A stretch of DNA of 64,000 nt from Sphingomonadaceae bacterium (GTDB taxonomy: Bacteria > Chloroflexota > UBA6077). Numbering within the stretch: position 1 is the first letter of the stretch; each line of letters opens with the position of its first letter. The stretch spans positions 1 to 64,000 of the forward strand of contig JBLNDL010000042.1 in the NCBI GenBank assembly GCA_050261575.1, read 5' to 3'. The notes under the pieces were generated by a model. The model was not told the DNA's origin, did no database searches, and worked only from the letters and a program-made list of their open reading frames with translations. Both the position numbers and the translations under genes were made by a program. Below, piece by piece: positions 186 through 18,038 of the stretch.

Positions 186-262
186 GGCGCATTCGTCTAG
201 CGGCCTAGGACACCTCCCTCTCAAGGAGGAGATCACCGGTTCGAATCCGGTATGCGCTACCA
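186..262 (+). tRNA. tRNA-Glu (anticodon CTC), provirus integration target
   Basis: Cloverleaf; anticodon arm CCTCC-CTCTCAA-GGAGG; T-loop GGTTCGAATCC; encoded CCA. Confidence 0.97.
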
Positions 263-454: not shown

Positions 455-1126
455 ATGGCCGAAAATGGCGCGCCCGGGCTGCCCGTCCCGGCATCGCATG
501 CAACAGTAGTCGCGAAACGTGCTGGGCTGCCCGCCCGGCGGGGGCTGGATCGGCTGCCGGTCTACGTGACGGCCGAGGAGGCCCGGGCCATCATCAACGC
601 CACCCGGGGTTTCCGGGACCGGCTGCTCCTGGAGACCATCTGGCAGACGGGCGGTCGCATCAGCGAAGTTTTGCGGCTACGGCCGGCCGACGTGGACCCG
701 GCCGACGGCACGATCCGGCTGGCGAACCTGAAGCAGCGCCGGGGCGCGGAGAAGGTCGTCTACGTCTCCCTGGACCTGGCGGCGCAGCTGCGGGCGCTGG
801 CCCGGGATCTCCGGGTGCCCCTGAACGGCTACCTCTTCCAGGGCCGGAACCCCGGGCGGCCCATGACGCGGTTCCAGGCCTACCGGATCATCTCGGCGGC
901 CGCGCGGGCCGCGGGCGTCCTCAAGGTCCACCCCGAGAGCGGGCGGGTGATGCCGGCGTGGCCCCATACCTTTCGGCACGGCGCGGCGAAGCACCAGCTA
1001 GAGCAGACGCTGAGGCTCGATTTCGTGCAGGATCAGCTTGGCCACGCCAGCCTGGAGACGACGAAGGTCTATCTACGGTTGGCAGACGCGGACCGGCGAA
1101 GGCTCAGGGACCAGATCAGCTACTAG
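455..1126 (+). CDS. Tyrosine recombinase, catalytic domain only (probable resolvase)
   Basis: GGRISE (R), LKQR (K), HTFRH, LGHAS, TKVY (Y); no arm-binding N-terminal domain. Confidence 0.9.
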   Translation: MAENGAPGLPVPASHATVVAKRAGLPARRGLDRLPVYVTAEEARAIINATRGFRDRLLLETIWQTGGRISEVLRLRPADVDPADGTIRLANLKQRRGAEKVVYVSLDLAAQLRALARDLRVPLNGYLFQGRNPGRPMTRFQAYRIISAAARAAGVLKVHPESGRVMPAWPHTFRHGAAKHQLEQTLRLDFVQDQLGHASLETTKVYLRLADADRRRLRDQISY

Positions 1127-2726: not shown

Positions 2727-3049
2727 TGGTTCATCTCCACTACAGTCTCGGGTATCTGTCGCTCCTGGGCCTTCAGCGCACCCAGGTCCTCGGCGGATCG
2801 GATGGCCATCCTGAGCGCCTTGCTCTCCGACTGCAGGGCTGCCACCACCACCCGCAGCGATTCCACTCGACCACGCAGCGAGTCCATCTCTGCCTGCAAC
2901 TTCTCCAGGCGGTCCCACATGGCGTCGGCTCGGGCGGCCCAGGCCAGCTCGGTCTGCTGCCGTATCTGCCGCATGCGCCACAGGGCTCCGGCCAGGGCAG
3001 CCATGCCGCCGGTGATGGTCGTGATAGCCGCGATCACCTCTGCCGTCAT
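2723..3049 (-). CDS. N-terminal TM plus coiled-coil protein (lysis accessory/holin-like)
   Basis: Hydrophobic N-terminus, heptad-rich C-terminus, coupled to ATPase and endolysin by overlaps. Confidence 0.6.
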   Translation of the reverse strand: MTAEVIAAITTITGGMAALAGALWRMRQIRQQTELAWAARADAMWDRLEKLQAEMDSLRGRVESLRVVVAALQSESKALRMAIRSAEDLGALKAQERQIPETVVEMNQ

Positions 3050-4020
3050 TCCACGTCCTCATCCCCGCATCTAGTGTCGCCCGGCACAGCTCGCACTTTG
3101 CCGGCCTGGTAGGGATCCTCCCGACCCGCCACGCCGTAGGGCATCATGCCCCGGTACCCCAGCTCCGGGGCATGCACGTACACCCAGCCCTGGATCGGTA
3201 GCCCTCGCAGCCCGGAGCGCCGGAGCTCCCGATAGGCCGCGGCCGCAGCCTGCCAGTAGCGGGCGTTGTCCTGGCGGTCCGCCTCCGCCTCGCCGCCGCT
3301 GGGCTCCTTGATCATCACGGCGTCGCACCAGGTCATCTGCACCGGCAGGTCCGCCCCCAGGTGGGCGATCACCACGATCAGCCAGTTCAGATGTCGCGCC
3401 TGCCGGATGGCCCGCTCCACGGCCAGGATGCCCTTCTGCGTGCCCCGGGGATGCAGGCTCAGGGACGCCTCGTCGATCAGAACGACCTTTCGGCGGATCT
3501 CACGGGGCGGGTCCTGCCCCTGGGAGAGTGCGTCGGCGAGCATGCCGACGGCATCGGCGAAGACCTCGATGGAGCGCCACTGGATCCACGGCCGCAGGTC
3601 GTCGCGGTACATGTTCACCGCGATCACGTCGTAGCCGTGGTCCCGGCGCCACGCCTCCGCCAGCCGCACGGCCAGCGTGCTCTTGCCCGATCCCCTTGGA
3701 CCGAGGATCAAGACCACGCCGGACCTGAGCCCCCGCAGCCTGCTCTGGAAGCTCCACCAGGGCCGGGCGTCGGGGTCGGATACTGGTGGGGTGGACTCGC
3801 CCTCGCCGGTGATCACGGCCTTGAGCTCGGTGAGGTCGATCCCCTCGGGCGTCAGCCTGACGCCCAGGTGACGGGCCAGCCGCTCCACGCTCTCCACCGC
3901 GGGGGCGTACTCGGGTGCCAGTAGCCGCACCGCCGCCTTGGCCAGCCGCGCGGCCGCGTCGTATTGGCCCGATCTCGCCGCCTGGATCTCCCTCAGCACG
4001 CTGGGGATATCGCCGATCAA
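3046..4020 (-). CDS. Genome-packaging ATPase, FtsK/HerA (A32-like) superfamily
   Basis: Walker A GPRGSGKS, Walker B VVLIDEA, arginine-finger RQARH then hydrophobic strand; TTG start at 4020 with GGAGGTG RBS. Confidence 0.8.
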   Translation of the reverse strand: MIGDIPSVLREIQAARSGQYDAAARLAKAAVRLLAPEYAPAVESVERLARHLGVRLTPEGIDLTELKAVITGEGESTPPVSDPDARPWWSFQSRLRGLRSGVVLILGPRGSGKSTLAVRLAEAWRRDHGYDVIAVNMYRDDLRPWIQWRSIEVFADAVGMLADALSQGQDPPREIRRKVVLIDEASLSLHPRGTQKGILAVERAIRQARHLNWLIVVIAHLGADLPVQMTWCDAVMIKEPSGGEAEADRQDNARYWQAAAAAYRELRRSGLRGLPIQGWVYVHAPELGYRGMMPYGVAGREDPYQAGKVRAVPGDTRCGDEDVE

Positions 4021-4667
4021 GTGGGCACCTCCGCCGTCATATGGTTCCCTAGCAGCCCCACAGCCAGGGTGAGGCCGCTCAGGAGCAGCACGTCGCGCCA
4101 AGGGCTTGACCTACCCTCCCGACTGTGGTATACAGAGTCGACGGTCCCTGGCGGGCGTCCCGACCGCGATGCGCCAGGCCGACCGACTAGGACAGGAGTC
4201 GGGTTCCTGACACCAGGGCTAGGGCGGGCATCCTTTTTGGGATTGCCCGCCGTTTCTTTCTGGCCGGGCGCTCCCCTTCTGGTCGGATAGGCGGTAACCC
4301 ATTTCTTGAATCTCGTCGACTTCCGGTCCGCGATTGTCTGTATGTGCTGCCTCCCCTTGCGGTTAGGCCGAACGATCTCCAGGGTGCTTAGATACGCTAC
4401 ACGTCCTTTGCGCCCGGGCACGGGCTCCCAGTCATCGGACTCCTGGATGGCGGGCACTATGGCTGGCACGTACTCCCACCGCCGATCTCTGTCATGGTCG
4501 ACGAAGAAATGCTGGTAGACCCAGTTGGAGTCAACCTCGACGACACTGTTGTCGGGCGCGTCAACGTATGCGTAGCCCTGCCTGTTCGCGCCTATCTCCT
4601 CGCGGATTCTCCCGAGTGCTTCCTCTCTTGACCCAGGGTAGTCGTCCCAAAGCCGAACGATCCTCAC
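4017..4667 (-). CDS. Putative BECR/PBECR-fold ribonuclease-like protein
   Basis: Pattern QHFF..DRRWEYVPAIVPAI..AYL..WVTAYP resembles PBECR domains (recognition only); visibly lower GC than flanks. Confidence 0.45.
   Translation of the reverse strand: MRIVRLWDDYPGSREEALGRIREEIGANRQGYAYVDAPDNSVVEVDSNWVYQHFFVDHDRDRRWEYVPAIVPAIQESDDWEPVPGRKGRVAYLSTLEIVRPNRKGRQHIQTIADRKSTRFKKWVTAYPTRRGAPGQKETAGNPKKDARPSPGVRNPTPVLVGRPGASRSGRPPGTVDSVYHSREGRSSPWRDVLLLSGLTLAVGLLGNHMTAEVPT
4106..4260 (+). ncRNA. Putative antisense sRNA unit (promoter, hairpins, terminator) inside the 3' end of the 4017-4667 gene
   Basis: TTGACC(4106)-17-TATACA(4129) with upstream TG; stems CCTGGCG/CGCCAGG and CCGACT/AGTCGG; GGCGGGCA..TGCCCGCC then GTTTCTTTC. 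Confidence 0.55.
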
Positions 4668-4873
4668 CGCCTCGGCTCCTGGTTGCTGTCCGGCACCCGC
4701 TGTACGTACATCCCCGCCATCTGGGCCACGGCCGCACCCTCTCCCACGGGCACCCCGTGCCGTTGCGCGGCCTCCACTATCCGCCGGGCTGCCGCCTGGG
4801 CGGCGGCCGCGTCGGGACGTCCGGACTCAGCTGCCTGGATCTCCCTCAGCACGCTGGGGATATCGCCGATCAC
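4664..4873 (-). CDS. 69-aa chimeric ORF (ATPase N-terminus plus fragment of the 5010-6164 protein)
   Basis: MIGDIPSVLREIQAA shared with ATPase; AAAQAAARRIVEAA..HGVPV..AVAQMAGMYV.RVP shared with 5010-6164. Confidence 0.55.
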   Translation of the reverse strand: MIGDIPSVLREIQAAESGRPDAAAAQAAARRIVEAAQRHGVPVGEGAAVAQMAGMYVQRVPDSNQEPRR

Positions 4874-5009
4874 GTGGGCACCTCCGCCACCATATAGTTC
4901 GCTCCGATCTCAGGCTTCATCTCCCCATCACTTTGTTGGGGACGTACCGGACTGCTATGGCCTTCCCGGTAGAGATCCGGAGCTTCGCGTCCTCCAGCCC
5001 TATGCGGCG

Positions 5010-6164
5010 TCATGCCCCATACAGGCTGTTGTCCCATCTGTACGCGATCTCTCGGCCGCGCTTGTCGGTGGTGAACGCGATCAGCATGGGGCGCTTGGGA
5101 TTATGGCGGCGCCGCCCGGCACCCTCGGCCAGTGCCTGGAGTAGGTCGTCCTCGGTCTCGATGCCGAGGTAGGGATACTCATAGGCTATGAGCTGGGCCA
5201 CCTCGTCGGCGGGCAGTCCACGCTTATTCTTGAGGTACAACGGGACGTCATGCCGATACTCCCAGCCCTCGCGTTTTCCAGCATGGGGAGCTATGCCGTA
5301 CTTGCTGACGCTTTTCACGGCTTGCCGAACCTGGTCCGCCCAGTCGTCCTCTTCCCACCCCTCGCGCCAGTCGTTCGCGGCGGCCACCCGCTTTCTCTGG
5401 TCGGCGAGGAACGCCCGGTGGCTCGCGGAGTCGTAGTAGCTGTCGTAGCCCTCGCTGCCGCGGATTGGGTGAATCACGCCGGCGTCGTCCGTGTAGGCAT
5501 CCAGGTTGCGCCAGCGCTCCGGGACGCGCTCGACGTACATCCCGGCCATTTGGGCCACGGCGGTTTTCTCGGAGACGGGCACGCCATGCTCTTTGGCCGC
5601 CTCCACTATCCGCCGGGCCGCCGCCTGGGCGGCGGCCTTGCTGGGGAAAACGGTCTGGCTGAATCGCCCCAGGGCGGCACGGATGTGGGCCGCGTCGTGG
5701 ACGGGGAGGGCCCGGATCTCCGGCGCGGCGAAAGCCGAATCCGGCAGGGCGGCCCGCTCAGCAGTGCTCAGCCTGGGGTTGCTGGCCATCATGCGACGCC
5801 TCAGCTCGTTCCGCTTGGTGGCCACCTGTTCCCTCTGCTTCATGAGCTTATCCATCTTGGCCTCCCACCGGGCCACGGCTCGCTCGAAGTCGTCGTAGCT
5901 TCGGTAGTCGCGCAGGTTCGGCACCTGCTCGCGAAGCCGCTCGTACTCCTCCGCCAGACGCCGGCCGGTGGTCCTCAACCGCTCCCAAGCCTGGTTCAGG
6001 TCGGTCGGGTTCACGACCCTCCAGCCTTGCCGCTGGAGGGAGCTGACCGCCTTGGAGCCCGGCGCGACCCGATATCGCTTGCCCCGCGGACTCTCGATGA
6101 CCACGTAACGCGCCGGTCTGCGCGCTGGCTTAGGCTTACCGAAGAGCCGGTCCCAGAATCCCAT
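5010..6164 (-). CDS. Basic multi-module protein containing a DUF6582-like domain; probable internal virion protein
   Basis: LSTAERAALPDSAFA..LPVHDAAHIRAALGRF resembles DUF6582; modules separated by NP motifs; frame stays open 30 codons past the TGA, to 4917. Confidence 0.65.
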   Translation of the reverse strand: MGFWDRLFGKPKPARRPARYVVIESPRGKRYRVAPGSKAVSSLQRQGWRVVNPTDLNQAWERLRTTGRRLAEEYERLREQVPNLRDYRSYDDFERAVARWEAKMDKLMKQREQVATKRNELRRRMMASNPRLSTAERAALPDSAFAAPEIRALPVHDAAHIRAALGRFSQTVFPSKAAAQAAARRIVEAAKEHGVPVSEKTAVAQMAGMYVERVPERWRNLDAYTDDAGVIHPIRGSEGYDSYYDSASHRAFLADQRKRVAAANDWREGWEEDDWADQVRQAVKSVSKYGIAPHAGKREGWEYRHDVPLYLKNKRGLPADEVAQLIAYEYPYLGIETEDDLLQALAEGAGRRRHNPKRPMLIAFTTDKRGREIAYRWDNSLYGA

Positions 6165-6166
6165 GG

Positions 6167-6352
6167 CTACCTCCTAGCAGGGTTGTTGACGCGCGTGACC
6201 CGATCGGCGGGTAGCACCCGTGCCACCACCCCCGCGTTGCGGATCCCCGTGGCCACAGCCTTGGCCACGGGCCGGTGGGGCGTGCGGTACAGCTCCACCA
6301 ACTCGCCCGTCTGCGTGGTCGCCACCACCACGTAGCCGGCCTGTCTGGCCAT
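6167..6352 (-). CDS. Small basic protein ending in NNPARR
   Basis: ATG at 6352, tightly packed in operon. Confidence 0.55.
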   Translation of the reverse strand: MARQAGYVVVATTQTGELVELYRTPHRPVAKAVATGIRNAGVVARVLPADRVTRVNNPARR

Positions 6353-6353
6353 G

Positions 6354-6689
6354 CTAGCCCACCACCTCGAACTCGCCGCCGCAGGCACCACACCGGCCTA
6401 TCTGGCCGGCTGCCTGCGCCGGGATCTCCAGCAGCTCCCCGCAGTGCGGGCAGGACGCCCGCTCGACCTCATCCTCGCCCGCGGCCGAGAAATCGTGGCT
6501 GCCCTCCACCATGTCGATGTGCAGGTTCAGCTCCGGGAACGGGTTGTGCCCCCGCCGGGCTCTCTGCCATGCGCGACCAGCCTCCTTCATCAGCTCCTGG
6601 AGCTGCTCCTTGCTCATGCCGGGGCGGCTCCTGGCCCGCAGGAAGCTCGTGGCGAAGAGCTGATATGTGCTCATCTTGCGTCTGGCCAT
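6354..6689 (-). CDS. Basic protein with C-terminal zinc ribbon
   Basis: MARRKM start with GGAGGTG RBS; RRGHNP; CPHC...CGAC. Confidence 0.65.
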   Translation of the reverse strand: MARRKMSTYQLFATSFLRARSRPGMSKEQLQELMKEAGRAWQRARRGHNPFPELNLHIDMVEGSHDFSAAGEDEVERASCPHCGELLEIPAQAAGQIGRCGACGGEFEVVG

Positions 6690-6700
6690 GTCATCACCTC

Positions 6701-7207
6701 CTAGCCGACCAGGCCGCGGTCGGGATCTAGCTTCATCTTGCTGCCGGCGGGCACCGTGTACACCTTGCCATCGGCGTCGGCCACCAGCAGTCGCCGTCCC
6801 CGCAGTCGGGGCAGCCCCGGGCCCCGGTCGCCGGCCTCGTGCTGCCACTCCACACCGCCGCGACGGCTGTGGCGGTCCGGCCGATAGACCGTCTCCACCT
6901 CCTCGCCGATCACCACCACCTCCCGGGGCGGGCGCTGGTCCTCGTCCAGGATTGCCGTCTCAGCGGGCGTGCCGTGGAACCGCTCGGAGATCGCCTCCAG
7001 CCTGGGGTCGTGGACCGGGGCATGGACGTGGGCCGGGTTCCGCCGCCTCACGTACTCGCCGATGTCCCTGTAGGCGGGCGGCGGGTCGCCCACGACGGCG
7101 GCGGGCAGCTCCCGCAGCTGGTGCGGGCTGAACGCCAGCATCTGGGCGGCGGCGAGGAGAGCCCGCCGCGCCCGATCCCCCAGCTCCCGATGCTTCGCCC
7201 TGGCCAT
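6701..7207 (-). CDS. Hypothetical virion-associated protein (RRRNP, then FHG...QHE domain)
   Basis: 168-aa ORF in the structural operon. Confidence 0.65.
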   Translation of the reverse strand: MARAKHRELGDRARRALLAAAQMLAFSPHQLRELPAAVVGDPPPAYRDIGEYVRRRNPAHVHAPVHDPRLEAISERFHGTPAETAILDEDQRPPREVVVIGEEVETVYRPDRHSRRGGVEWQHEAGDRGPGLPRLRGRRLLVADADGKVYTVPAGSKMKLDPDRGLVG

Positions 7208-7209
7208 GG

Positions 7210-7302
7210 TTACCGCTTCCTGCGGTGGGTCTTGCGCCGGTGGGTCTTGTGTCCGGCCTTCACGAACCGGCCGGTCTTGGGATCGCGCTTGGGTAGTGCC
7301 AT
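7210..7302 (-). CDS. 30-aa protamine-like microprotein MALPKRDPKTGRFVKAGHKTHRRKTHRRKR
   Basis: Below ORF-track cutoff; AAAGGAG RBS; fills the gap between two operon genes. Confidence 0.75.
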   Translation of the reverse strand: MALPKRDPKTGRFVKAGHKTHRRKTHRRKR

Positions 7303-7323
7303 GGGGTTCGCTCCTTTCTGGCG

Positions 7324-7818
7324 CTAAACGGCCTTGAAGAACGCGCGTATGTCGAAGGTTTCATTCGTGGTCAGGTCCTCCACGTAGCCATTCGGCTGGA
7401 GGGCCATATGATGTCCATTGTCGTTGACGAACACGTCGCCGGGCTTGTACACGTTGCTGCCGGGTCCGTTCTGTACGATCGTCTGGAGCTGGGTGTCCCA
7501 CCAGACCGGCTGCCCTCCCAGGTCCACCATGCTGGTGGGTATCCGGGTCGGGTTTCCGGGTGCAGCGCCGACGCCGGCGGAGCCACTCCCCCTACCGCTC
7601 GCCACCCCTCCCGACCCGGCGGGTATGGAGGCGGCCGTGTAGCTCTTCCCCGGGTGCAGCGCCTTCCACACCTCCATGGCCTGCCGCTGGGCATTGGTGC
7701 CGAGAGAGCCCTGGAGGGCCATGCGGTACAGGATCACCGTGGCGCCGCCTACCACCAGGTAGTAGGCGAGGGCATCGATGCTGCTGGATCCTCGGGGGTT
7801 GCGCTGGCGGCTGGCCAT
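7324..7818 (-). CDS. Virion membrane protein (N-terminal TM)
   Basis: MASRQRNP, then hydrophobic helix and Gly/Ser linker. Confidence 0.65.
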   Translation of the reverse strand: MASRQRNPRGSSSIDALAYYLVVGGATVILYRMALQGSLGTNAQRQAMEVWKALHPGKSYTAASIPAGSGGVASGRGSGSAGVGAAPGNPTRIPTSMVDLGGQPVWWDTQLQTIVQNGPGSNVYKPGDVFVNDNGHHMALQPNGYVEDLTTNETFDIRAFFKAV

Positions 7819-7821
7819 GGT

Positions 7822-8298
7822 CTACCTCCGCTTCTTGCCGGACATCAGGTACCAGACCAGGACCAACCCGCCCAGCACTATCCCCGTCGAAACGCTGTGG
7901 GGATCGTCGGGCCAGATGGGCCGCTTCAGGAACTTGACCACCTGGTCCATGGTGGTCTCCGTGGCCCTGGCGGCGCTGACGGCGGGTGTGTCGGCCGCGC
8001 TGGAGGCGGTCGTGGTGCTGCCCGGCACGGTGGTGGCGGATGGACGTGCCGTCTGCTGTTGGCTGATGGCGCGCGCGAGGTCAGATTGGGATAGCGCCAT
8101 AGCCAGGGCCTCGTGGTAGTCCACGGTGCGCCCGTCGGGGGCGCGGAACACGTCCGCCGGACCGTAGACGTTGGGCAGGTAGCCCGGCCGCGCGTAGGCA
8201 GCCACCCACGCCGGGTCCTGCATGATCTCCACGAGGCTGGTGTCGTACACCAGGGGCACCCCGCCCAGGTCCTTCAGGCTCAGTTTGATGACGCTCAT
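7822..8298 (-). CDS. Virion membrane protein (C-terminal TM)
   Basis: Thr/Ala linker then GIVLGGLVLVWYLMSGKKRR. Confidence 0.65.
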   Translation of the reverse strand: MSVIKLSLKDLGGVPLVYDTSLVEIMQDPAWVAAYARPGYLPNVYGPADVFRAPDGRTVDYHEALAMALSQSDLARAISQQQTARPSATTVPGSTTTASSAADTPAVSAARATETTMDQVVKFLKRPIWPDDPHSVSTGIVLGGLVLVWYLMSGKKRR

Positions 8299-8300
8299 GA

Positions 8301-8564
8301 CTACCTCCCTAGCACGGCCACCAGCAGTACGGCCCCGCCCAGCAGCAGTATCCCGCCGCCCATGTTGCCGGCATCCTTCGCCAGATTTCCGGCACCCTCG
8401 GCAACGTTGCCGGCGGCCCGGGTAATCTGCTGGGCGCTGGTCGCCGCTGCCTCGGATAGCTCCGGGCCGTGCTGGTACAGGGTGTAGCCGACGACCCCGA
8501 GTCCAAGGGCCTGGATGAGGAGCTGGATAATGGCCCGCAGTCCGGCGATGATGGCCATGGTCAT
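8301..8564 (-). CDS. Small two-TM virion membrane protein
   Basis: Start MTMAII (ATGA overlap); two hydrophobic segments. Confidence 0.6.
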   Translation of the reverse strand: MTMAIIAGLRAIIQLLIQALGLGVVGYTLYQHGPELSEAAATSAQQITRAAGNVAEGAGNLAKDAGNMGGGILLLGGAVLLVAVLGR

Positions 8565-8809
8565 GCCTCCCAGACGACCGACAGGACGTTGCCGGATATG
8601 CTCACCGAGATCAGCCGCTGCACGTGCGGCCGGATGGCTCCTGCGATGGCGTCCGCGACGTTGATCGGCCCGATCCACTCGGGCCACGGCACCGGCAGCG
8701 TAAGCTGTAGCTCCAGAACTTCGCCGGCCCCAGCGGAGTCGATGGCGGCCCCCAGGCCGGACATGTCGCCGTCGGCACCCACGGAACCGGACGAAAGTAC
8801 CGTGCTCAT
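8561..8809 (-). CDS. Hypothetical structural protein
   Basis: Start MSTVLS with GGAGG RBS. Confidence 0.5.
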   Translation of the reverse strand: MSTVLSSGSVGADGDMSGLGAAIDSAGAGEVLELQLTLPVPWPEWIGPINVADAIAGAIRPHVQRLISVSISGNVLSVVWEA

Positions 8810-8813
8810 ATGG

Positions 8814-9416
8814 CTACCTCCTCCCCAGCAGCGCCAGCAACACGATGGCCGCGACGCCGTACAACAGCAGCTTGTCGTTGTTGGTCGCCGGCACCGACAC
8901 CGGGGCACTGGCGCCACCAGCACCGGACGGCGCGGTCGGGCCGCCGCCGAGAATCGGGCAGGCCGCGCGGTTGAAGGCCGCGATCATGCTGGCCGTGTCC
9001 CAGGGGCCGGGGTATCCCGCGCCCTGGAGCTGCGACCGCAGGAAGGCGACGGTCATGGCGCCCTTGCAGGTGCTCACCAGTTGGTCGTCGGGGTTCGAGG
9101 CCGTGGCGGGCCCCGTGTTGGTGGAGGGCGCCGTGGCCGGCGGCTGCTGGATTGGCTGGGCCGGCTGGTTGATCCAGGTGACGGTGCCCTGGGCCGGATA
9201 GTACGGCCCGCGCTGGCCGGTATTCGTATCCACCACCTGGCCGTTCACAATTTGTAGCCCTTGGTTTGATTCGGAGCGGGCCGACTGTGGCTCCGCGGCC
9301 ACGCTGACGTACCCCGTGATGTTGCCGGAGCTGTCGCGGGTTGGGGCGTTATAGTCCGGGGCTCCGGCGGCGATCCACGCCGCACGCCGTGCCGCAGCAT
9401 CCTCTTCCGCACTCAT
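8814..9416 (-). CDS. Virion membrane protein (C-terminal TM anchor)
   Basis: Pro/Thr linkers; KLLLYGVAAIVLLALLGRR. Confidence 0.65.
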   Translation of the reverse strand: MSAEEDAAARRAAWIAAGAPDYNAPTRDSSGNITGYVSVAAEPQSARSESNQGLQIVNGQVVDTNTGQRGPYYPAQGTVTWINQPAQPIQQPPATAPSTNTGPATASNPDDQLVSTCKGAMTVAFLRSQLQGAGYPGPWDTASMIAAFNRAACPILGGGPTAPSGAGGASAPVSVPATNNDKLLLYGVAAIVLLALLGRR

Positions 9417-9418
9417 GC

Positions 9419-9886
9419 CTATCCCTCCACTAGCGCTATGATCACCAGGGCCGCGAGGGCGAGCAGCACCAGCCCGTCGGCCCCGGCCCCGGCGGGCGGT
9501 GCTGCGACACTGGCCCCTAGGGCGGCCGCAGCATCGGGGAGCCCGGCCATAGCAGCGTCCCGGGTGCTCCAGGGCGATATGGCCTCATACGGGGTGGCGC
9601 CCGCGTCCAGCCGTGACTGGATGTAGCGCATTGCTATCGCCAGGTTCTGCGCCGGGTGCAGCAGCACGCTCTCCGGGTAGCCGTTCCCCAGGCCTCCGCC
9701 GTCACCCAGGTTGTTGTTGTGCAGCTGCGTCAGCCCGAAGCTGCTGCCGTTATCGCCGACGGCCGACGGGTTATACCCGCTCTCCGGCCCGGCGATGGCC
9801 AGGGCCAGGGCGGCAGCGAGATCGCTCGCTCCCGTCTGTGCCTGGGCCTCACGAGCCCAGGCTATCGCCATTGCGGGTATCGCCAT
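9419..9886 (-). CDS. Membrane-anchored lytic transglycosylase (virion entry enzyme)
   Basis: AIAGPESGYNPSA (catalytic ES), GLTQ motif, C-terminal TM. Confidence 0.8.
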   Translation of the reverse strand: MAIPAMAIAWAREAQAQTGASDLAAALALAIAGPESGYNPSAVGDNGSSFGLTQLHNNNLGDGGGLGNGYPESVLLHPAQNLAIAMRYIQSRLDAGATPYEAISPWSTRDAAMAGLPDAAAALGASVAAPPAGAGADGLVLLALAALVIIALVEG

Positions 9887-9904
9887 TGGTCTCCACCCTC
9901 AGCC

Positions 9905-12331
9905 CTACGGCTGGGCCGTCCAGCTCCCCACCACATTGGTCACCACCCAGGTAGCTGTATCCTGCCTGCGGAGCGTCACGCTGGCCCCAATCTGGTTGCT
10001 CTGTATGTACTTGCCCGCCCCCGTGCCCAGCGGCCGGATAGTACTACCCGCGTCCGGCGCGATGGTCAGCGTCTGGGCCGCCAGAATTTCAAAGGTGATC
10101 TCTATGCCTACTGGGAACGTGCTCTCCAACGTGATGGTGGCAGCGTTGACATAGTTTCTGTTCGTGATCGTCCGATAGTACGCGGCAGGGCCAATGCTGG
10201 AGTTTGCAGCAGGTGGCTCCAACACCAGTATCCTGTACCTGTCCGTGAACGTGGCCTGTTTTGCGGCCAGCCAGACCGGATTCTGTCCTGCCATGACCTG
10301 CATGGCTATGGGGTCCATGACGGCGACTTTAGAGGGTTTATCCTGCGCCCCGGTGCGATAGTCGTTCACAAACACGGCCTGCGGGGGAAGGCTGCCGCTC
10401 GGCCCCACCACCGTGGGCTCGAAGATCGAGACATTCCCGAGTGGGTCTGTGCCCGTATCTGTAGACTCTGCCACTATGCAGAACGCCGAGGCCAAGTTGG
10501 GAGCCGAGCTGTTGGCCTGGTTAGGGTCTACGACCACCGGTTTATCGACGATCACCCGGGGGGCATTTATCCCCCAGGTAGCATAGAAGGCCGCGTAACG
10601 GGCCTGGATCCACATTGGCTCGCTAATGACGATACTGCCAGGCAGGGTTATCATTCCGCCGGTTAGCTGCACGGGCGCCCCCTGGCCGAGAACATTCACA
10701 TGCCCGCGTATCTGGATGCTCACCGTATGGCCACTGCCCCCAAGAGCATTGGGGTAGACCAGTATTCCGGCACCCGCGTTGAACGCCGTGTACGGCTCCT
10801 CGATCCAGATGTCCTCTAGGTAATGCGCGGTGCTGTAGGGCTCCAGGTCTATGCCCGCCTGCGGGTTGGTCCCGTTGGTGTTGGTCAGCCGCGGTCGGAC
10901 GATCCAGAGGCGCCGAGCGGAGCAGACAGAGATTCCCTGCCGCCGGTTGTTGTCGCAAACTGCGTCGATGATCGATACGTCATCGCTCCATGACTGGCCC
11001 CCGGTCGCGGAAGCATCGATGTAGATGCCGTCTCCCCAGCAGTTAGAGCAGGATGGGCGTACCACCCTGACTCTGGTGCTCCCGCAGATGGAGATACCCA
11101 TCCCCCACTCGCCGGTCGTGGCGGCGTTCAGGTCCCGCCGGCCATCTAGCGTGGCCCCCTCGATGACCACATTCTGACTGTCCCACACCCGCAGCATCTG
11201 ATAAGAGCCTAGATTGTGGGCTTTGTTCTGCAGCTTCGCGCCCGGGGCAAATACCACCCTGCTATTGCTGGCAACTGTCAGTCCCACCGCCGGGTCTATG
11301 ATATAGGTGCCAGGCGGCAACAGCAGGGTTGATCCAGCGGCCGCGTTGAGGGCCGCCTGCAGAGCTGCCGTATCGTCGGTAACCCCGTCTCCTTTTGCCC
11401 CGAACTCCCGCGCGTTGACTGTTTGCCCCGACAGACTGACCCACTGATAGCCGGTGTCCATCCAGACCCCGCGGGTCGTGTCGGTTACCCGGGCCAGGCG
11501 GCCGGCGGTCCCCGCAGCGGGCAGGGCTGCCGCAGCGTAGCCAGATAGCGGCAGGCCGGAGAGGTTGTCCAGGAGCTTAGAGGCGGCCCCGACCAGGCTC
11601 GCGGTGCCGGCCGCGTTGCCGTTCAGCGAGCCCGATATCAGGTTTCGGTCGCACCCGCTAGCCGCCACCTCCACAACGCCGTACTGCTGGGTCTTAGCCC
11701 CCTGGGTGTCGGTCGCGGCCACGGTGAGTGTCGCGTCGGTGGTAACGGCATCGAGGGTGACGCCGTTGCCGGCTACCCGCTGGCCATTGTTGATGGCGGT
11801 CACCATCCCGCTGGCGAAGGTGGACCCCGCCAGGTACACCCCATGGCGGCCGTTGGAGCTGGCCACCACATCCAGGACCGGGCGCTTGCAGGTGCTGAGC
11901 GCCAGCCCGTCGGTGTAGCAGTTCTGGATTGTCACAGCGAGCCGGGCATCGTCGCACTTCGACAGGTTGATCCCGTTCCCGCCGCTGGACTGGCTGGCTC
12001 GGTTCCCGTCTATCGTCCCGCCGCCGGTGATCCGTATCCCGGCGTTCCCGTTCGTCGGGTCGGCGTTGGCCACCACGTTGCAGTTGGCGCCGGCTGCCAG
12101 CATCAGGGTGCAGCCGGTGGGGATCACCAGCTCGCTGTTGCTCGGCATGAGGATGGATTGCCGGCACCACAGGGTCCCGACCGGCAGCAGGAGGGAGCCG
12201 CCTCCCGAGAGGCTGCCCCGGTTGAGGGCGTCGTTGATGCGCGCGGCGGCGTCCCCCTCGGGGTCGTTCACCGGGATTTCGAGCTCGTAGACCTGTCCGC
12301 CCGCTCGGAGCTGTGCCATACCGTCAGTCAT
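9905..12331 (-). CDS. Receptor-binding spike with two right-handed beta-helix (pectate lyase-like) domains
   Basis: DAAARINDAL...LLLPVGT and VNAREFGAKGDGVTDDTAALQAALN...LLLPPGTY starts; repeated beta-helix rungs. Confidence 0.8.
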   Translation of the reverse strand: MTDGMAQLRAGGQVYELEIPVNDPEGDAAARINDALNRGSLSGGGSLLLPVGTLWCRQSILMPSNSELVIPTGCTLMLAAGANCNVVANADPTNGNAGIRITGGGTIDGNRASQSSGGNGINLSKCDDARLAVTIQNCYTDGLALSTCKRPVLDVVASSNGRHGVYLAGSTFASGMVTAINNGQRVAGNGVTLDAVTTDATLTVAATDTQGAKTQQYGVVEVAASGCDRNLISGSLNGNAAGTASLVGAASKLLDNLSGLPLSGYAAAALPAAGTAGRLARVTDTTRGVWMDTGYQWVSLSGQTVNAREFGAKGDGVTDDTAALQAALNAAAGSTLLLPPGTYIIDPAVGLTVASNSRVVFAPGAKLQNKAHNLGSYQMLRVWDSQNVVIEGATLDGRRDLNAATTGEWGMGISICGSTRVRVVRPSCSNCWGDGIYIDASATGGQSWSDDVSIIDAVCDNNRRQGISVCSARRLWIVRPRLTNTNGTNPQAGIDLEPYSTAHYLEDIWIEEPYTAFNAGAGILVYPNALGGSGHTVSIQIRGHVNVLGQGAPVQLTGGMITLPGSIVISEPMWIQARYAAFYATWGINAPRVIVDKPVVVDPNQANSSAPNLASAFCIVAESTDTGTDPLGNVSIFEPTVVGPSGSLPPQAVFVNDYRTGAQDKPSKVAVMDPIAMQVMAGQNPVWLAAKQATFTDRYRILVLEPPAANSSIGPAAYYRTITNRNYVNAATITLESTFPVGIEITFEILAAQTLTIAPDAGSTIRPLGTGAGKYIQSNQIGASVTLRRQDTATWVVTNVVGSWTAQP

Positions 12332-12341
12332 CGCCCGCCCC

Positions 12342-13229
12342 CTACCGCCCCACCGTGCCCTGGGCCGAGACCTTGGTGGTCACGCCGGAGCCGCCGGCGG
12401 CCACCGTCACGCTCATGGCGGTGTTCACGGAGCCCCGCAGCGGCTGGGTGAACTCGTAGTCGTTCACTCCCTGGGTTCCGCCGGCCTGGCCGATGTAGGC
12501 GTCCCAGATGACCGTGGCGCCGTCCTTCACCTGGACGTTGGCGTCGGCTGCCGGCGCCCCGCCGCTCCAGCTCACCGTGAGTCCGGAGAGGTAGTTTCGC
12601 AGCCCCGCCCCGGCCGCGGCCTGGGTCACCGTCTGGGCGGTGTTGGCAGCCGAGGTCCCCACCAGGTTCCAGGTGGTCGGCTGGGGCTGCACCCGCAGCC
12701 ATCCCTGGGCCAGGTTAACGACGCCCGCCAGCAGCGCCACCAGCCCGCGCAATTTGGCGGAGATGGTACCGGGCGCATCCGAGGTGACGGCCGTATCGGT
12801 GGTAGATCCCTGGGCTACATCCTGCCCGTCGGCGATGGAGACCTGCGGGGAACCCGTGATGTTCACCACGGCGCTGGCCGCGGCGATGAAGGGCGTGAGG
12901 ATCACGGTGATCCCGCCGGATCCGCTGCCGCTGATGGAGGTGATGGCCGCCGTCACCACCTGGGCCACGTTCAGCACCGCGTAGCGGGTGGTGGCCGATA
13001 CGGCCTTGCTGGCGTTGGGGTCCGGCTCCCGCACCCAGGCCGAGCCGTTGTTGCCCCAGATCTCAACGACCCCGGTGTAGTTGTCGCAGATCACGTCCAC
13101 CAGCACGCCGTTGGCGTACTGGCAGGGCACCTGCAGAGCCGTACCCACCGGCACCAGCGACCGAGCCTGGCTGATCACCACCACGCTGTCCTGCTTGGCA
13201 TCGAGGCTGATGCTATCCGCCATCCGCAT
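12342..13229 (-). CDS. Beta-rich structural protein, candidate penton/spike base
   Basis: Two beta-strand-rich regions separated by a short helix; lies between capsid and spike genes. Confidence 0.5.
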   Translation of the reverse strand: MRMADSISLDAKQDSVVVISQARSLVPVGTALQVPCQYANGVLVDVICDNYTGVVEIWGNNGSAWVREPDPNASKAVSATTRYAVLNVAQVVTAAITSISGSGSGGITVILTPFIAAASAVVNITGSPQVSIADGQDVAQGSTTDTAVTSDAPGTISAKLRGLVALLAGVVNLAQGWLRVQPQPTTWNLVGTSAANTAQTVTQAAAGAGLRNYLSGLTVSWSGGAPAADANVQVKDGATVIWDAYIGQAGGTQGVNDYEFTQPLRGSVNTAMSVTVAAGGSGVTTKVSAQGTVGR

Positions 13230-13276
13230 CTCCCGTTTGCCCGGGGGTCACCTCGACCCCCGGGCCAGGAATGGGG

Positions 13277-14320
13277 CTAGCTAGCCAGGTCATAGAAGCG
13301 GTGCAGCATGAGCACCGTCCCCACGCTGGCTACACCCATGTCGATCACGATGTCGCCGGGATCGAACCCGCGCATGTCCAGACCGTAGAGCTGGTTGACC
13401 GCGCCGCCGATGGTCGTGAGGTCGATCCGCCCCACGCCTGCATCGACCCCCGCCGTGACCACCGGAGTTCCGAAGGTCGTGCCGTCGTCCTCGCAGATGC
13501 CCGTGGTCCTGCCCGTGTCCACCTCGAAGCTATCCCACGCCCAGCGGGCGATGCGGGCATTGCCATCCTTGGGGATGCGCACCCCGATATCGGTAAGTGC
13601 CGAGCTGGAACGGTTGTCCGCCGGCGCCGAACCGGCCAGGCTCAGCACCGTTGTGCTGTGCCAGAAGTGGCTCTGGGGCACCTGGTAGGGCGTCCCCTGG
13701 CTGCCTGAGGTGCTGGGCGGTATGAAGGCGTTGGTGGTGAGCAGCGGCAGCGCCGCCGGCACGATGGGCGCCTCGCCCGCCTTCGCCTGGATGCCATAGA
13801 GCGTCACACTGAGCTGGGTCCCGGCGTTCAACGTCCAGCCGCTCCCCAGGTTGGTCTGGGGCGCCCACGTGGGGATCAGCGTGAGCTGCGACTGCCCTGC
13901 CGGGATCCCGGCCGTGAGATCGAATGGGTTGTAGGTGCCGTCCGGACTCACCGGCCTGGATCCGAAGTGGAGCCGGATCTGGGCCTTCCGCGTGACGCCG
14001 GTCTGGCTGGCACCCGGGGCGGACTTGGCCACGTACTTGGAGCCATTCGGCAGGAAGATCTTGTTCTCGAAGTGCACCGGCCGCAGGTCGCCGATGGCGA
14101 CGTAGTTGCGCCCGCCGTCGCCCACCAGCATCAGGCTGGAGAGGCAGCGGTAGTACGGGTCCTGGGTGGTGCCGGGGCTCGCCGTGGTGGTGATGTTGAA
14201 GTCGAAATCCAGCAGCATGCTGGTGATCACGTAGGGCCTGGGCGAGAGCTCCAGCGGCGTCGCAATGCCGCTCGCGTAGCCCTTGGAGGTGGTTATCCGC
14301 TCAACGAATCTGCGTGGCAT
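13277..14320 (-). CDS. Major capsid protein, double jelly-roll (STIV-like)
   Basis: 347 aa, beta-rich; residue pattern parallels STIV B345 as recalled; GGGGAGGTG RBS; context of packaging ATPase and membrane proteins. Confidence 0.75.
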   Translation of the reverse strand: MPRRFVERITTSKGYASGIATPLELSPRPYVITSMLLDFDFNITTTASPGTTQDPYYRCLSSLMLVGDGGRNYVAIGDLRPVHFENKIFLPNGSKYVAKSAPGASQTGVTRKAQIRLHFGSRPVSPDGTYNPFDLTAGIPAGQSQLTLIPTWAPQTNLGSGWTLNAGTQLSVTLYGIQAKAGEAPIVPAALPLLTTNAFIPPSTSGSQGTPYQVPQSHFWHSTTVLSLAGSAPADNRSSSALTDIGVRIPKDGNARIARWAWDSFEVDTGRTTGICEDDGTTFGTPVVTAGVDAGVGRIDLTTIGGAVNQLYGLDMRGFDPGDIVIDMGVASVGTVLMLHRFYDLAS

Positions 14321-14334
14321 CTCTCACACCTCCC

Positions 14335-14808
14335 CTATAGCTGGCTCTGCACGGTGGGCTGTGCAGGCTGGAGTTGCTGCTGCTGGCTCCCCTCGGCCTT
14401 GGGGGCCGGCAGCGCGAACTTGCTGGAGACCGCCGGCAGCCCGGCAAAGGCGTCGAAACCGGGCACGAACGCTCCCACGCCCTGGTTCAGGGCGATGGCG
14501 AGGCCGCCCAGCCGCGCGTAGTCGCCGTAGTGGCGGCGCCACTTGCCAACGCCCCATCCGACCACCGCCGCCGAGACGGCCGACAGCGCGGCACGGCCCA
14601 GGCCGCTCTTCAGCTTGTCGATGGCGTTGGTGATGGGCGCGGCGACGCCGGACATGGCGCCGGCCACCTGGCTGGTGAGGTAGGCGCCGGCACCCACTGA
14701 GATGATGTTCTCCGCCGGGGTGCCCAGCACCTCGGGGTTGCGCCGGACCGCTCTGGCCCGGTGGTGTCCGCCGCGATGCCGGCGGACAGGTCTGAGGACG
14801 AATGCCAT
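14335..14808 (-). CDS. Virion membrane protein with Arg/His-rich N-terminus ending RRNP
   Basis: RPVRRHRGGHHRARAVRRNP, then Gly/Ala-rich hydrophobic helices; directly upstream of the capsid gene. Confidence 0.7.
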   Translation of the reverse strand: MAFVLRPVRRHRGGHHRARAVRRNPEVLGTPAENIISVGAGAYLTSQVAGAMSGVAAPITNAIDKLKSGLGRAALSAVSAAVVGWGVGKWRRHYGDYARLGGLAIALNQGVGAFVPGFDAFAGLPAVSSKFALPAPKAEGSQQQQLQPAQPTVQSQL

Positions 14809-14935: not shown

Positions 14936-15757
14936 CTACCCGGCCACTCCGCCGGCCTCCACCAGCCGGCGCAGTTCGGACAGCAGCTGGAGGGTGTAGT
15001 CGCGGTGGGAGATCAGCCAGCCGATGACCGGCTCCCAGCCGGGCTCGTCCGCGAGCTCCCCCAGGATCGCCATGGCCTCCTCGTCACTCAGGGCGAGGGC
15101 CGTGTTCAGGACCTCCACCAGGGCCGGCATGCTCCCGGCGAGCCGGAGGAGCTGGCCGGCCATGTCCTCGGGGGATCGCCGCTCCAGCATCACCAGGATC
15201 GCCTTTGCCTGGAGGCGACCCAGGGGAGGCATCCTCGAACCCGGCTCCGGCTGCTGTGCGGGGGCGGCCAACTGCTCGGGGGCCGCGGGCGGCGCCACCT
15301 GGGGCTGGCCGGCCGTGGGGGCGGGGGTGGCCTGCTGCGTCTGCTGCTGCAGTATGGCCTGCTGGATGGCGGCCCCCACGCCGGCGCCGATCCCCTGGCC
15401 CAGGGGACTGTTCAGCAGCGCGGCCAACCACCCGGGGGTGTCGTCGGGCACCTCCACCGGCTCCACCGGCTCCGGCGCCAGCGCCTCCTGGAGCTTCCGC
15501 AGCGCCTCCGCCTGCTCCAGCACCTCCTGGAGGGCCGAGCCTCCTTGGCGGTCGCGCACGGCCACCAGCGCCCGGTATTTCTGGGGCCGCAGCAGCAAGA
15601 GCGCCCGCTCCGGATCCTGGGCCGCGATCTGGTTCAGCACCTCCTGCTCGGCCCTCGCCCTGGCGGTGCGGGCCTGTATCTCGGCCAGGCGAAGAGTCTC
15701 CTCCGCCTCGGCGATACGCTGGGTCATGGGCCGCTGCCTACGCCCGAACAGCTTCAT
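14936..15757 (-). CDS. Hypothetical helical protein with Pro/Gln-rich linker (morphogenesis region)
   Basis: Start MKLFGRR with AGGAGG RBS. Confidence 0.65.
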   Translation of the reverse strand: MKLFGRRQRPMTQRIAEAEETLRLAEIQARTARARAEQEVLNQIAAQDPERALLLLRPQKYRALVAVRDRQGGSALQEVLEQAEALRKLQEALAPEPVEPVEVPDDTPGWLAALLNSPLGQGIGAGVGAAIQQAILQQQTQQATPAPTAGQPQVAPPAAPEQLAAPAQQPEPGSRMPPLGRLQAKAILVMLERRSPEDMAGQLLRLAGSMPALVEVLNTALALSDEEAMAILGELADEPGWEPVIGWLISHRDYTLQLLSELRRLVEAGGVAG

Positions 15758-17615: not shown

Positions 17616-18038
17616 TCATGCCCCGGCTCCCATCAGCGCCATCTGCCGCGCCGGCGGCGAGGGGCGGAGCGGCAGCGCCTCCGCCAGCTCCTCCCAGGCC
17701 TCCCCAGCCAGCTCCCACCAGCGCTCCATCTGCTCCGCATAGCGTCCCTGGAGCCGGTCCAGACCCCCGTCAGCTGACGCCACCGCCGCCGCGTCTCCGG
17801 CCAGCTCCGCCATGGCCCGCCGCTCCCACGTGGCCATGATCTCCGCGTAGGTGGCCAGGACCTCCTCCTGGGCCTGGAGCAGCTGCCGGATCTCCCACTT
17901 CCGGATCGCGAGATCATCCCTGGTCGCTTGATCGACGGCCCCGGCCGGGGCAGCCACCCGCAGCACACCGTTCTCCACCCACAGGGCCGCACCCGACCGC
18001 CAAAGAGCCACCAGCAAACGCGCGTCCGACGTGCTCAT
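17616..18038 (-). CDS. Primase-associated protein with TubC-N-like domain
   Basis: LWVENGVLRVAAPAGAV...LAIRKWEIRQLL; ATGA overlap with primase. Confidence 0.55.
   Translation of the reverse strand: MSTSDARLLVALWRSGAALWVENGVLRVAAPAGAVDQATRDDLAIRKWEIRQLLQAQEEVLATYAEIMATWERRAMAELAGDAAAVASADGGLDRLQGRYAEQMERWWELAGEAWEELAEALPLRPSPPARQMALMGAGA

Follow-up and report, generated by a model that had tools for sequence, protein, structure and literature searches.

Eukaryotic relatives of the bacterial and archaeal double jelly-roll (DJR) viruses both mature by proteolysis and carry DNA-condensing peptides. In adenovirus, for instance, pVII and pX are cut by the viral cysteine protease, and pX gives rise to the Arg/His-rich Mu peptide. 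We know of no bacterial or archaeal DJR virus that matures by proteolysis or carries dedicated DNA-condensing peptides. Nucleic acid is also bound by the Arg-rich arms of small icosahedral coat proteins, by protamines and by SPKK-type turns (Ser-Pro with basic residues), and FlhB and YscU cleave themselves at the consensus NPTH. In PMC10328401 Asn-Pro autocleavage is documented for the bacterial anti-sigma factor RsgI, and reovirus μ1 and aquareovirus VP5 are cited as being cut at Asn42-Pro43; Asn-Pro is also listed among hydrolysis-prone peptide sequences in Table 3 of PMC10056213. Exchangeable modules, and processing into separate domains, have been proposed for the polyvalent proteins (Iyer et al. 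2017, PMC5512222). Does a bacterial DJR element also mark off arms and modules with a fixed site? Here we analyse positions 1 to 64,000 of contig JBLNDL010000042.1 (assembly GCA_050261575.1), a stretch of 64,000 nucleotides referred to as the window, whose left 21 kb is a prophage-like element with a capsid protein of predicted DJR-like fold. In its late proteins a run of basic residues followed by Asn-Pro (NP) recurs.

Our reading, which we hold tentatively and at a little short of an even chance, is that selection maintains the basic run plus NP as a short linear motif of junctions, where it delimits DNA-binding arms or modules. An Arg/His run, occasionally with Lys, would end in an invariant NP where an arm or upstream module meets the next folded module. 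The basic arms would bind and neutralise packaged DNA, and the NP, as an invariable Asx-Pro turn or hinge that does not deamidate, would close the arm and open the next module, no cutting being required. Because each module would bring its own NP, modules could be inserted or swapped without disturbing their neighbours. Literature searches found no mention of DUF6582 (a domain of one of the proteins concerned) and no description combining DJR, prophage and arginine-rich; judged by title and abstract, nothing relevant linked Asn-Pro with phage virions.

Conservation of Asn-Pro in three protein families

The 157-aa protein has an Arg/His-rich arm (residues 1-23), then N24-P25 and a Gly/Ala-rich, moderately hydrophobic body; its Kyte-Doolittle maximum is 1.31, under the usual 1.6 for a membrane helix. 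The N-terminus of the open reading frame (ORF) just upstream of the capsid gene is readable in 14 loci, eight of which (L026, L028, L029, L030, L031, L032, L033 and L036) have an Arg/His run ending in NP, while six more distant ones (L034, L038, L039, L040, L041 and L042) are without it. When the window protein is aligned with seven orthologues that are 21-35% identical to it (alignment A3), N24 and P25 are the sole invariant columns. A profile of this family retrieved 283 proteins at E <= 0.001 from 1.84 billion representatives, of which the best 150 were examined and one repetitive protein of 3290 residues was dropped. Among the 149 that remain of these best 150 of 283, NP lies within the first 60 residues in 136 and two or more basic residues stand just before an NP in 91; about 13 representatives are without the entire N-terminal segment. 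But is the position of the NP fixed as well? An anchor segment of the [ILV][FL]G-x-[DE] kind, chosen blind to NP, was placed in 109 sequences: NP falls exactly at -3/-2, one residue before the anchor, in 86 of them and a few residues further upstream in 14, and none of the 109 has Asp, Ser or Thr where the Asn should be. What is conserved extends further in this family than elsewhere and reads R-x-N-P-x-[ILV]-[FL]-G-E-D; one representative, P0171, begins MPNILGED.

NP also borders the basic runs of this family on both sides. It accounts for 263 of the 966 Asn residues, and no other dipeptide follows runs of at least three R/K/H as often (30 occurrences; the runner-up, YR, has 5) or precedes them as often (16, against 5 for MA). 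Protamine-like arms reach about 170 residues in relatives, and long ones punctuated by NP occur in P0199, P0202, P0208, P0121, P0130 and P0131; P0121 has NP-R5HRGYR4-NP, an arginine run bracketed by NP, and in locus L032 the motif is repeated up to six times in 70 residues. At the other extreme, NP is kept with an arm of only three or four residues (MAVNP, MGRSNP, MPGNP).

A second family is that of the 168-aa protein, for which 19 homologues were found. Two begin after the NP site, and all 17 that cover it have NP together with Arg at -3 or -4. In the AlphaFold2 (AF2) model, of low confidence overall (mean 61), the predicted local distance difference test score (pLDDT) stays under 50 over residues 40-57 and rises to about 84 from residue 61 onwards; given this jump, N57-P58 marks the start of the confidently modelled domain. 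What this domain resembles is less evident: Foldseek gave nothing at E <= 0.001 against the PDB (best template modelling (TM) score 0.2), VIA wide gave only SH3-like rows with Z <= 3.5 and no protease likeness, and the profile of the family alignment (A4) had no match in the PDB. The C-terminal domain has its own invariants, namely R76, F77, H78, G79, S114, R116, H123, D127 and D144, and a conserved C-terminal Gly.

The 384-aa protein carries DUF6582 at residues 141-200 (33.4 bits against a Pfam cut-off of 27.3), N129-P130 is invariant in five of five close homologues, and the C-terminal (H/Y)NP is kept in all three homologues that reach it. BLASTP against the relative P0002 yields two blocks of homology: residues 1-53, with N52-P53 as the last pair, and residues 129-356, which N129-P130 opens and N355-P356 closes. 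The N52-P53 and N129-P130 junctions map alike to the lone N44-P45 of P0002, so the 75-residue coiled-coil segment between them (54-128), absent from P0002 and P0003, is an insertion that came with its own NP. NP thus coincides with homology breakpoints, and in the structure models it coincides with breaks in confidence: in the AF2 model of the 384-aa protein (low confidence, mean 58) N52 caps helix 53-79, segments 128-134 and 349-367 have pLDDT < 50, and the other two NP sites lie in linkers. Cellular DUF6582 proteins, present in 21 of 65 other genomes of the class, begin one or two residues past the position of the phage NP. An insert private to P0004 is flanked by NP only approximately, and P0057 was dropped as a clean NP-bracketed insertion as its BLASTP homology runs further upstream. 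All five members of this family start with a second N-terminal signature, MG[FL]-x-D-x-LFG-x-PKP, and so does an unrelated, scaffold-like protein of the same-class genome G203, encoded by the second gene upstream of the capsid gene (L026:345-1142); the counterpart of the latter protein in the window begins MKLFGRRQRP.

NP is therefore conserved in all three of the families examined, which suggests that the motif is under selection and, with its signature kept in relatives, that it is a real functional mark. In this respect the sequence-only reading, which had taken it for a feature shared among late proteins, has held up well. Its description of the 384-aa protein has too: the DUF6582-like module scores above the gathering threshold, the NP sites sit exactly on the boundaries of the homology blocks, and the segment missing from P0002 and P0003 is what an interchangeable module would look like. 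The proposal that DNA-condensing peptides are released is supported in part: the NP-bracketed basic runs of relatives look like such peptides, and their release by cleavage, like docking, is a possible role of the motif.

The motif in the window

Every instance listed in the sequence-only reading was located, always in minus-strand ORFs, and the ORFs that carry them have a G+C content at third codon positions (GC3) of 0.71-0.93 and Shine-Dalgarno sites. They are of unequal quality. If a strong instance is defined by two or more basic residues within the five before NP, five qualify: RAVRRNP, SRQRNP, VRRRNP, RRGHNP and RRRHNP. The others are weak: around AGNP there are no basic residues and around RVVNP just one, the tail of TRVNNP (ARR-stop) is set by the AGGAGG ribosome site of the next gene, and AGNP and GVRNP both lie in the tail of the 216-aa ORF, where GC3 is 0.60-0.63. 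To speak of seven late proteins was therefore an overstatement, although the five strong instances stand. In the window NP is followed by E, R, A, F, T or K; NPT occurs three times and His never comes next.

Could the excess of NP be a matter of amino acid composition? As a control, 2343 long, high-GC3 ORFs called in the source genome were taken as a crude host proteome. In it 8.8% of Asn precede Pro (1801/20410; observed/expected 1.56), a share that is 6.7-9.5% in low-Asn, high-Arg and small-protein subsets and 8.6% for Asn preceded by two or more basic residues (195/2263). The seven named proteins have 11 NP for 36 Asn (p = 2e-4) and the seven consecutive ORFs at 4017-7818 (the block) have 10 for 33; since the matched host subsets fail to reproduce this enrichment, composition as its sole cause was rejected. 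The other 13 late proteins have only 5 NP for 111 Asn and the eight early ORFs 3 for 31, and over all 20 late proteins the count of 16 NP for 147 Asn is not significant (p = 0.22). The 20 late proteins contain 8 basic-plus-NP sites, where residue shuffling leads one to expect 2.5; a count of 8 was reached by 12 of 5000 shuffles. Of the late Asn that follow two or more basic residues, 5/16 are NP (Fisher p = 0.01 versus host). Within the block, NP is the top dipeptide (rank 1/302; 10 observed, 2.3 expected), with p = 1.5e-4 for a threshold of 1.7e-4, and it is present in six of the seven proteins. By itself, then, the window yields a moderate signal, real but in part a matter of how the proteins are grouped.

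Several other origins of the motif were considered and rejected. A signal at the DNA level is not apparent, as the codons at the 16 NP sites have only AAC/AAT CCN in common. Neither is a paralogous domain: the profile of the 157-aa family matches the 157-aa protein alone in the window, and the 164-aa protein is not homologous to that family. Ribosome skipping of the 2A type was discarded because NPGP is present at no site of the window and in only two relatives (P0096 and P0141). A host region with many basic-plus-NP matches (C58) turned out to contain ordinary metabolism genes.

NP sites occur in neighbouring proteins as well. In a scaffold-like protein (14936-15757 in the window) the NP of relatives, found as RKTNPVKW, RRENPTEF, EANPELL and QNQNPDLY (L026:345-1142, L029:8252-9205, L031:8613-9434 and L032 near nt 643), is DP in the window (AAQDPERA). 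This exchange looks like ordinary helix-cap behaviour, unlike the strict Asn of the junction motif. In genome G203 two proteins carry the motif at the N-terminus, MARTVRNP and MANRRRNP; the latter start belongs to a second protein of the element (MANRRRNPSQA, L026 near nt 5790-6038, downstream GC3 0.94), and places the N-terminal motif on more than one protein in a second genome.

A junction, a cleavage site, a tag or a coincidence?

What, then, is the NP for? The hinge we favour fits the persistence of NP next to a vestigial arm, the one modelled helix cap (N52) and the exchange of NP for DP in the scaffold-like protein, and the NP preference of the host itself also fits a structural role. 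A self-cleaving junction is a less likely, though plausible, alternative: the Asn side chain would attack its own peptide bond by the succinimide route and break Asn-Pro with no viral protease, the multi-module proteins would be small polyproteins, the arms would be freed as protamine-like peptides, and a warm habitat might speed the reaction. Such chemistry would account for Asn and Pro both being strict in the 157-aa family, with no Asp, Ser or Thr as a substitute, for NP on both sides of the Arg run in P0121, and for homology blocks that end on NP and an inserted cassette that comes with one, an arrangement that one would expect of polyprotein sites. Free-standing relatives, moreover, start at the would-be cut, as the cellular DUF6582 proteins and P0171 do. 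No peptidase family that could do the cutting was found by Pfam at E <= 0.01 in 32 ORFs of the element and its right flank, in six of them rescanned at E <= 10, or in 18 late ORFs compared with PHROGs, although several proteins have no assignable fold and a novel protease may be among them. The precedents of RsgI, μ1/VP5 and the hydrolysis-prone peptides point the same way. As a side hint, the crude proteome of the source genome has an IVYWREL fraction (Ile, Val, Tyr, Trp, Arg, Glu and Leu) of 0.422, with 2.2% Asn, which suggests growth near 60 °C and a moderately thermophilic host; a warm habitat would speed spontaneous Asn chemistry. Against self-cleavage, the documented cases use a folded catalytic environment, whereas here the flanks of the sites are unrelated and the linkers that hold them are modelled with low confidence; a cut at residues 4-8 would yield nothing but tiny peptides, and proteins that have no arm to free keep their NP all the same. 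Uncatalysed scission of Asn-Pro is slow at moderate temperature, and the argument for cleavage draws on sequence and predicted structure.

That the motif is instead a docking or packaging tag, recognised by a virion component such as the inner face of the capsid, the vertex or the packaging ATPase and recruiting unrelated proteins as capsid-targeting peptides do, seems improbable. It would explain one short motif on non-homologous proteins of the same element, its N-terminal place in several of them (MASRQRNP in the window and the two G203 proteins), and the strictness of the Asn; the longer conserved stretch of the 157-aa family is also what a binding peptide would have. Outside that family, however, only basic residues and NP are common, little information for a specific receptor, and elsewhere the motif is internal, near the C-terminus or, as in L032, repeated. 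Least probable is that there is no shared function, NP being common in an Asn-poor, Pro-rich proteome and coincidences having been picked from Arg-rich proteins. The late proteins as a whole do not differ from the host, several listed instances are weak, the host ratio is already 1.56, and when the k-mers of 21 late proteins are ranked blind, NP comes 36th of 381 dipeptides and RNP 25th of 2627 tripeptides, both of which fail Bonferroni correction. Chance would nevertheless have to produce NP conserved in three of three families, the sole invariant columns of A3 among them, the exact match with the homology breakpoints between the 384-aa protein and P0002, and the top rank of NP in a contiguous block whose matched host controls stay at 6.7-9.5%.

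The junction reading has its own difficulties, and the blind k-mer ranks count among them. Ser, Thr or Asp would normally do as well in a plain hinge or cap, but the 157-aa family never replaces its Asn, which suggests selection for something more specific than a cap; of the four modelled sites, one alone is a classical helix N-cap. That the arms bind DNA is suggested by their composition, and that the block proteins are in the virion by gene position. The conservation itself was followed for three of the seven window proteins, with a profile built from NP-bearing sequences, which biases its matches somewhat towards NP, and with family representatives that are related to one another and not independent.

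The element and its genes

The element had been labelled a DJR virus, and at the level of predicted fold the label holds. The Atlas model of the capsid protein (predicted TM score 0.84) has as structural neighbours a PM2 P2-like (N/C) cluster (TM 0.80), a PRD1 P3_N cluster (TM 0.77, which meets the naming bar) and a giant-virus capsid cluster (TM 0.71), pointing to a DJR-like fold. The best match of its sequence profile in the PDB is weak, to the coat protein of Sulfolobus turreted icosahedral virus (E = 0.28). Fifteen homologues of the capsid protein were found. A complex prediction for the capsid and 157-aa proteins scored 0.00 with the fold of the partner uncertain, and counts neither for nor against binding. 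One distant relative (L038:9245-12316) has three tandem capsid paralogues, each with a DNP[FY]DL motif.

The late operon, on the minus strand, comprises in map order a holin, an amidase, a coiled-coil protein, the ATPase, the block and the genes up to that of the 157-aa protein (Table 1). PRD1/PM2-like viruses would have a genome-packaging ATPase of the FtsK/HerA type in such an operon; the ATPase here matched no specific packaging-ATPase family, all its P-loop/AAA hits in Pfam being below cut-off, and has no NP among its three Asn. Near the tRNA-Glu, repeats of >= 12 nt shared with the rest of the window were looked for and none was found. An ORF of the early region (17616-18038) matches the TubC N-terminal docking domain in Pfam (32.2 bits, cut-off 26), an unexpected family in a prophage replication module.

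Table 1. Positions of the element's genes and of the NP sites in the window
Feature	Positions	Strand	Remarks
tRNA-Glu	186-262		beside integrase
Tyrosine integrase	455-1126		adjoins tRNA-Glu
Holin, amidase, coiled-coil protein			late operon, listed before the ATPase in map order
P-loop ATPase, presumed genome-packaging	3046-4101	-	downstream of Arg-rich block; AAA-type Pfam hits below curated cut-offs
Block of small Arg-rich ORFs	4017-7818	-	next after ATPase in late operon
216-aa protein	4017-4667	-	residues 1-138 PBECR2-type nuclease-like (lead only); tail with AGNP, GVRNP
GVRNP	4200-4205	-	216-aa protein; among weakest instances
AGNP	4239-4244	-	216-aa protein; among weakest instances
69-aa chimeric ORF	4664-4873	-	no NP; ATPase N-terminus copy + DUF6582 second-half copy
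384-aa multi-module protein	5010-6164	-	N-terminal module, N52-P53, coiled-coil cassette, N129-P130, DUF6582, conserved helical region, N355-P356, variable tail
RRRHNP	5097-5102	-	384-aa protein, N355-P356
RRMMASNP	5775-5780	-	384-aa protein, N129-P130
RVVNP	6006-6011	-	384-aa protein, N52-P53
61-aa protein	6167-6352	-	ends TRVNNPARR-stop
TRVNNP	6179-6184	-	61-aa protein; positions of the NP
111-aa protein	6354-6689	-	basic helical N-terminal half, RRGHNP, C-terminal zinc ribbon
RRGHNP	6540-6545	-	111-aa protein, N49-P50
168-aa protein	6701-7207	-	variable N-terminal part, VRRRNP, conserved C-terminal domain
VRRRNP	7034-7039	-	168-aa protein, N57-P58
164-aa protein	7324-7818	-	MASRQRNP start, then borderline hydrophobic helix
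GNP	7549-7554	-	164-aa protein; second site, non-basic
SRQRNP	7795-7800	-	164-aa protein, N7-P8; start MASRQRNP
Small hydrophobic proteins, SLT lysozyme-like protein			after the block
Beta-helix spike	9905-12331		after the SLT lysozyme-like protein
295-aa protein			between spike and capsid protein
Major capsid protein, 347 aa	13277-14320	-	double jelly-roll-like fold, from structural neighbours of Atlas model
157-aa protein	14335-14808	-	just upstream of capsid gene; family of at least 283 representative clusters
RAVRRNP	14734-14739	-	157-aa protein, N24-P25
HTH regulator; D5-type primase-helicase (positions of the latter)	18035-20623		beyond late genes

Among the remaining block proteins, the 164-aa protein reaches a Kyte-Doolittle maximum of 1.56 at residue 17, and the zinc-ribbon Pfam hits of the 111-aa protein are below curated cut-offs. 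The 216-aa protein has no Pfam hit even at E <= 10; its Atlas rows give TM 0.38-0.48 by query to PBECR2 clusters (0.48/0.40 for one cluster), with PBECR2 feature scores <= 0.79, below the tool's lead threshold. Two pairs of direct repeats lie around its gene. The repeats at 3950-4050 and 4803-4903 (84%) duplicate the junction between the upstream gene end and the ATPase start, and those at 4689-4808 and 5518-5637 (81%) duplicate the second half of DUF6582. Together they create the 69-aa ORF, whose product is 71% identical to the 384-aa protein over residues 170-217 of the latter, and bracket the 216-aa gene, whose GC3 of 0.71 is lower than that of its neighbours. The arrangement looks like a recent cassette insertion by recombination, and the 69-aa ORF would mark the recombination scar inside the block.

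How widespread is the element? In a sample of 401 genomes of the phylum, three have the capsid protein and two the 157-aa family, the source genome included, where each is single-copy. The capsid gene has relatives in 16 metagenome loci and in one other genome of the class (G203, contig C101, the locus L026). A viral contig collection scanned with the single capsid protein, A2 and A5 held no relatives, a cultured phage collection no match to the capsid protein, and a genome collection only two short, spurious hits to it. When 18 window proteins were compared with the relatives' loci by tblastn, partners were found only for the 157-aa protein, the 295-aa protein and the spike; the distant loci have no recognisable orthologues of the block proteins by this method.

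Comparison with known systems

The motif is of practical use. It offers a concrete site to mutate and to seek in virion mass spectra, and a signature for virion-internal proteins in a group with no cultured member in the phage collection searched; it also documents module exchange at a fixed junction. Cutting at Asn-Pro, if it takes place, would give phages a new way of processing polyproteins; if it does not, the motif is still unusually strict for a linear one.

With the virion-delivered, multi-domain polyvalent proteins the element shares accessory modules, such as a putative PBECR-type nuclease, among virion genes. Polyvalent proteins are for the most part those of portal-terminase phages; they are much larger and have metallopeptidase domains for processing (PMC5512222). 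Here the proteins are small, the capsid is of the DJR type as predicted, the PBECR2 likeness is a weak structural lead and no peptidase family was found in the ORFs scanned. The likeness to μ1/VP5 and RsgI lies in a strictly conserved Asn-Pro (invariant in A3, 17/17 in A4 and 5/5 in A1), and for μ1/VP5 also in a site that belongs to a protein of the virus particle, where cutting frees an N-terminal peptide. The sites of those proteins are in folded domains with defined catalytic neighbours, such as an Asp that polarises the Asn or a beta-turn between strands, and occur once per protein. Those described here adjoin Arg runs in linkers that are predicted to be flexible, and they are spread over many unrelated proteins, sometimes several in each. 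Judged by its sequence, the motif has only the dipeptide in common with this type of autocleavage. The FlhB/YscU type is further away: NPTH is absent from the sites of the window, whose three NPT are never followed by His.

Other likenesses concern the basic arms. Like coat-protein arms, protamines and SPKK-type turns, the proteins have disordered Arg-rich stretches in which a small polar residue and Pro next to basic residues can turn; unlike in SPKK, the residue is always Asn and not Ser or Thr, and the motif also separates modules that are not basic (DUF6582, the C-terminal domain of the 168-aa protein). In the way it works the motif comes closest to the Asn-Pro autocleavage sites of the reovirus outer-capsid proteins and to the Arg/His core peptides of adenovirus. 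The adenovirus core shares with the element a virus with a DJR capsid, Arg/His segments that have the same short site at either end, and a presumed role in DNA condensation. It differs in that neither an adenain-like nor another peptidase family was found here, in the site (Asn-Pro instead of the Gly-containing adenain consensus), and in the basic segments, which are here arms of proteins with hydrophobic bodies. We consider it rather unlikely that this is a bacterial DJR lineage with protease-free, self-cleaving Asn-Pro junctions that release cargo pieces and genome-condensing Arg/His peptides. Such self-cleavage would be the functional counterpart of adenovirus core maturation, reached by a different chemistry and possibly tuned by temperature in a host from a warm habitat.

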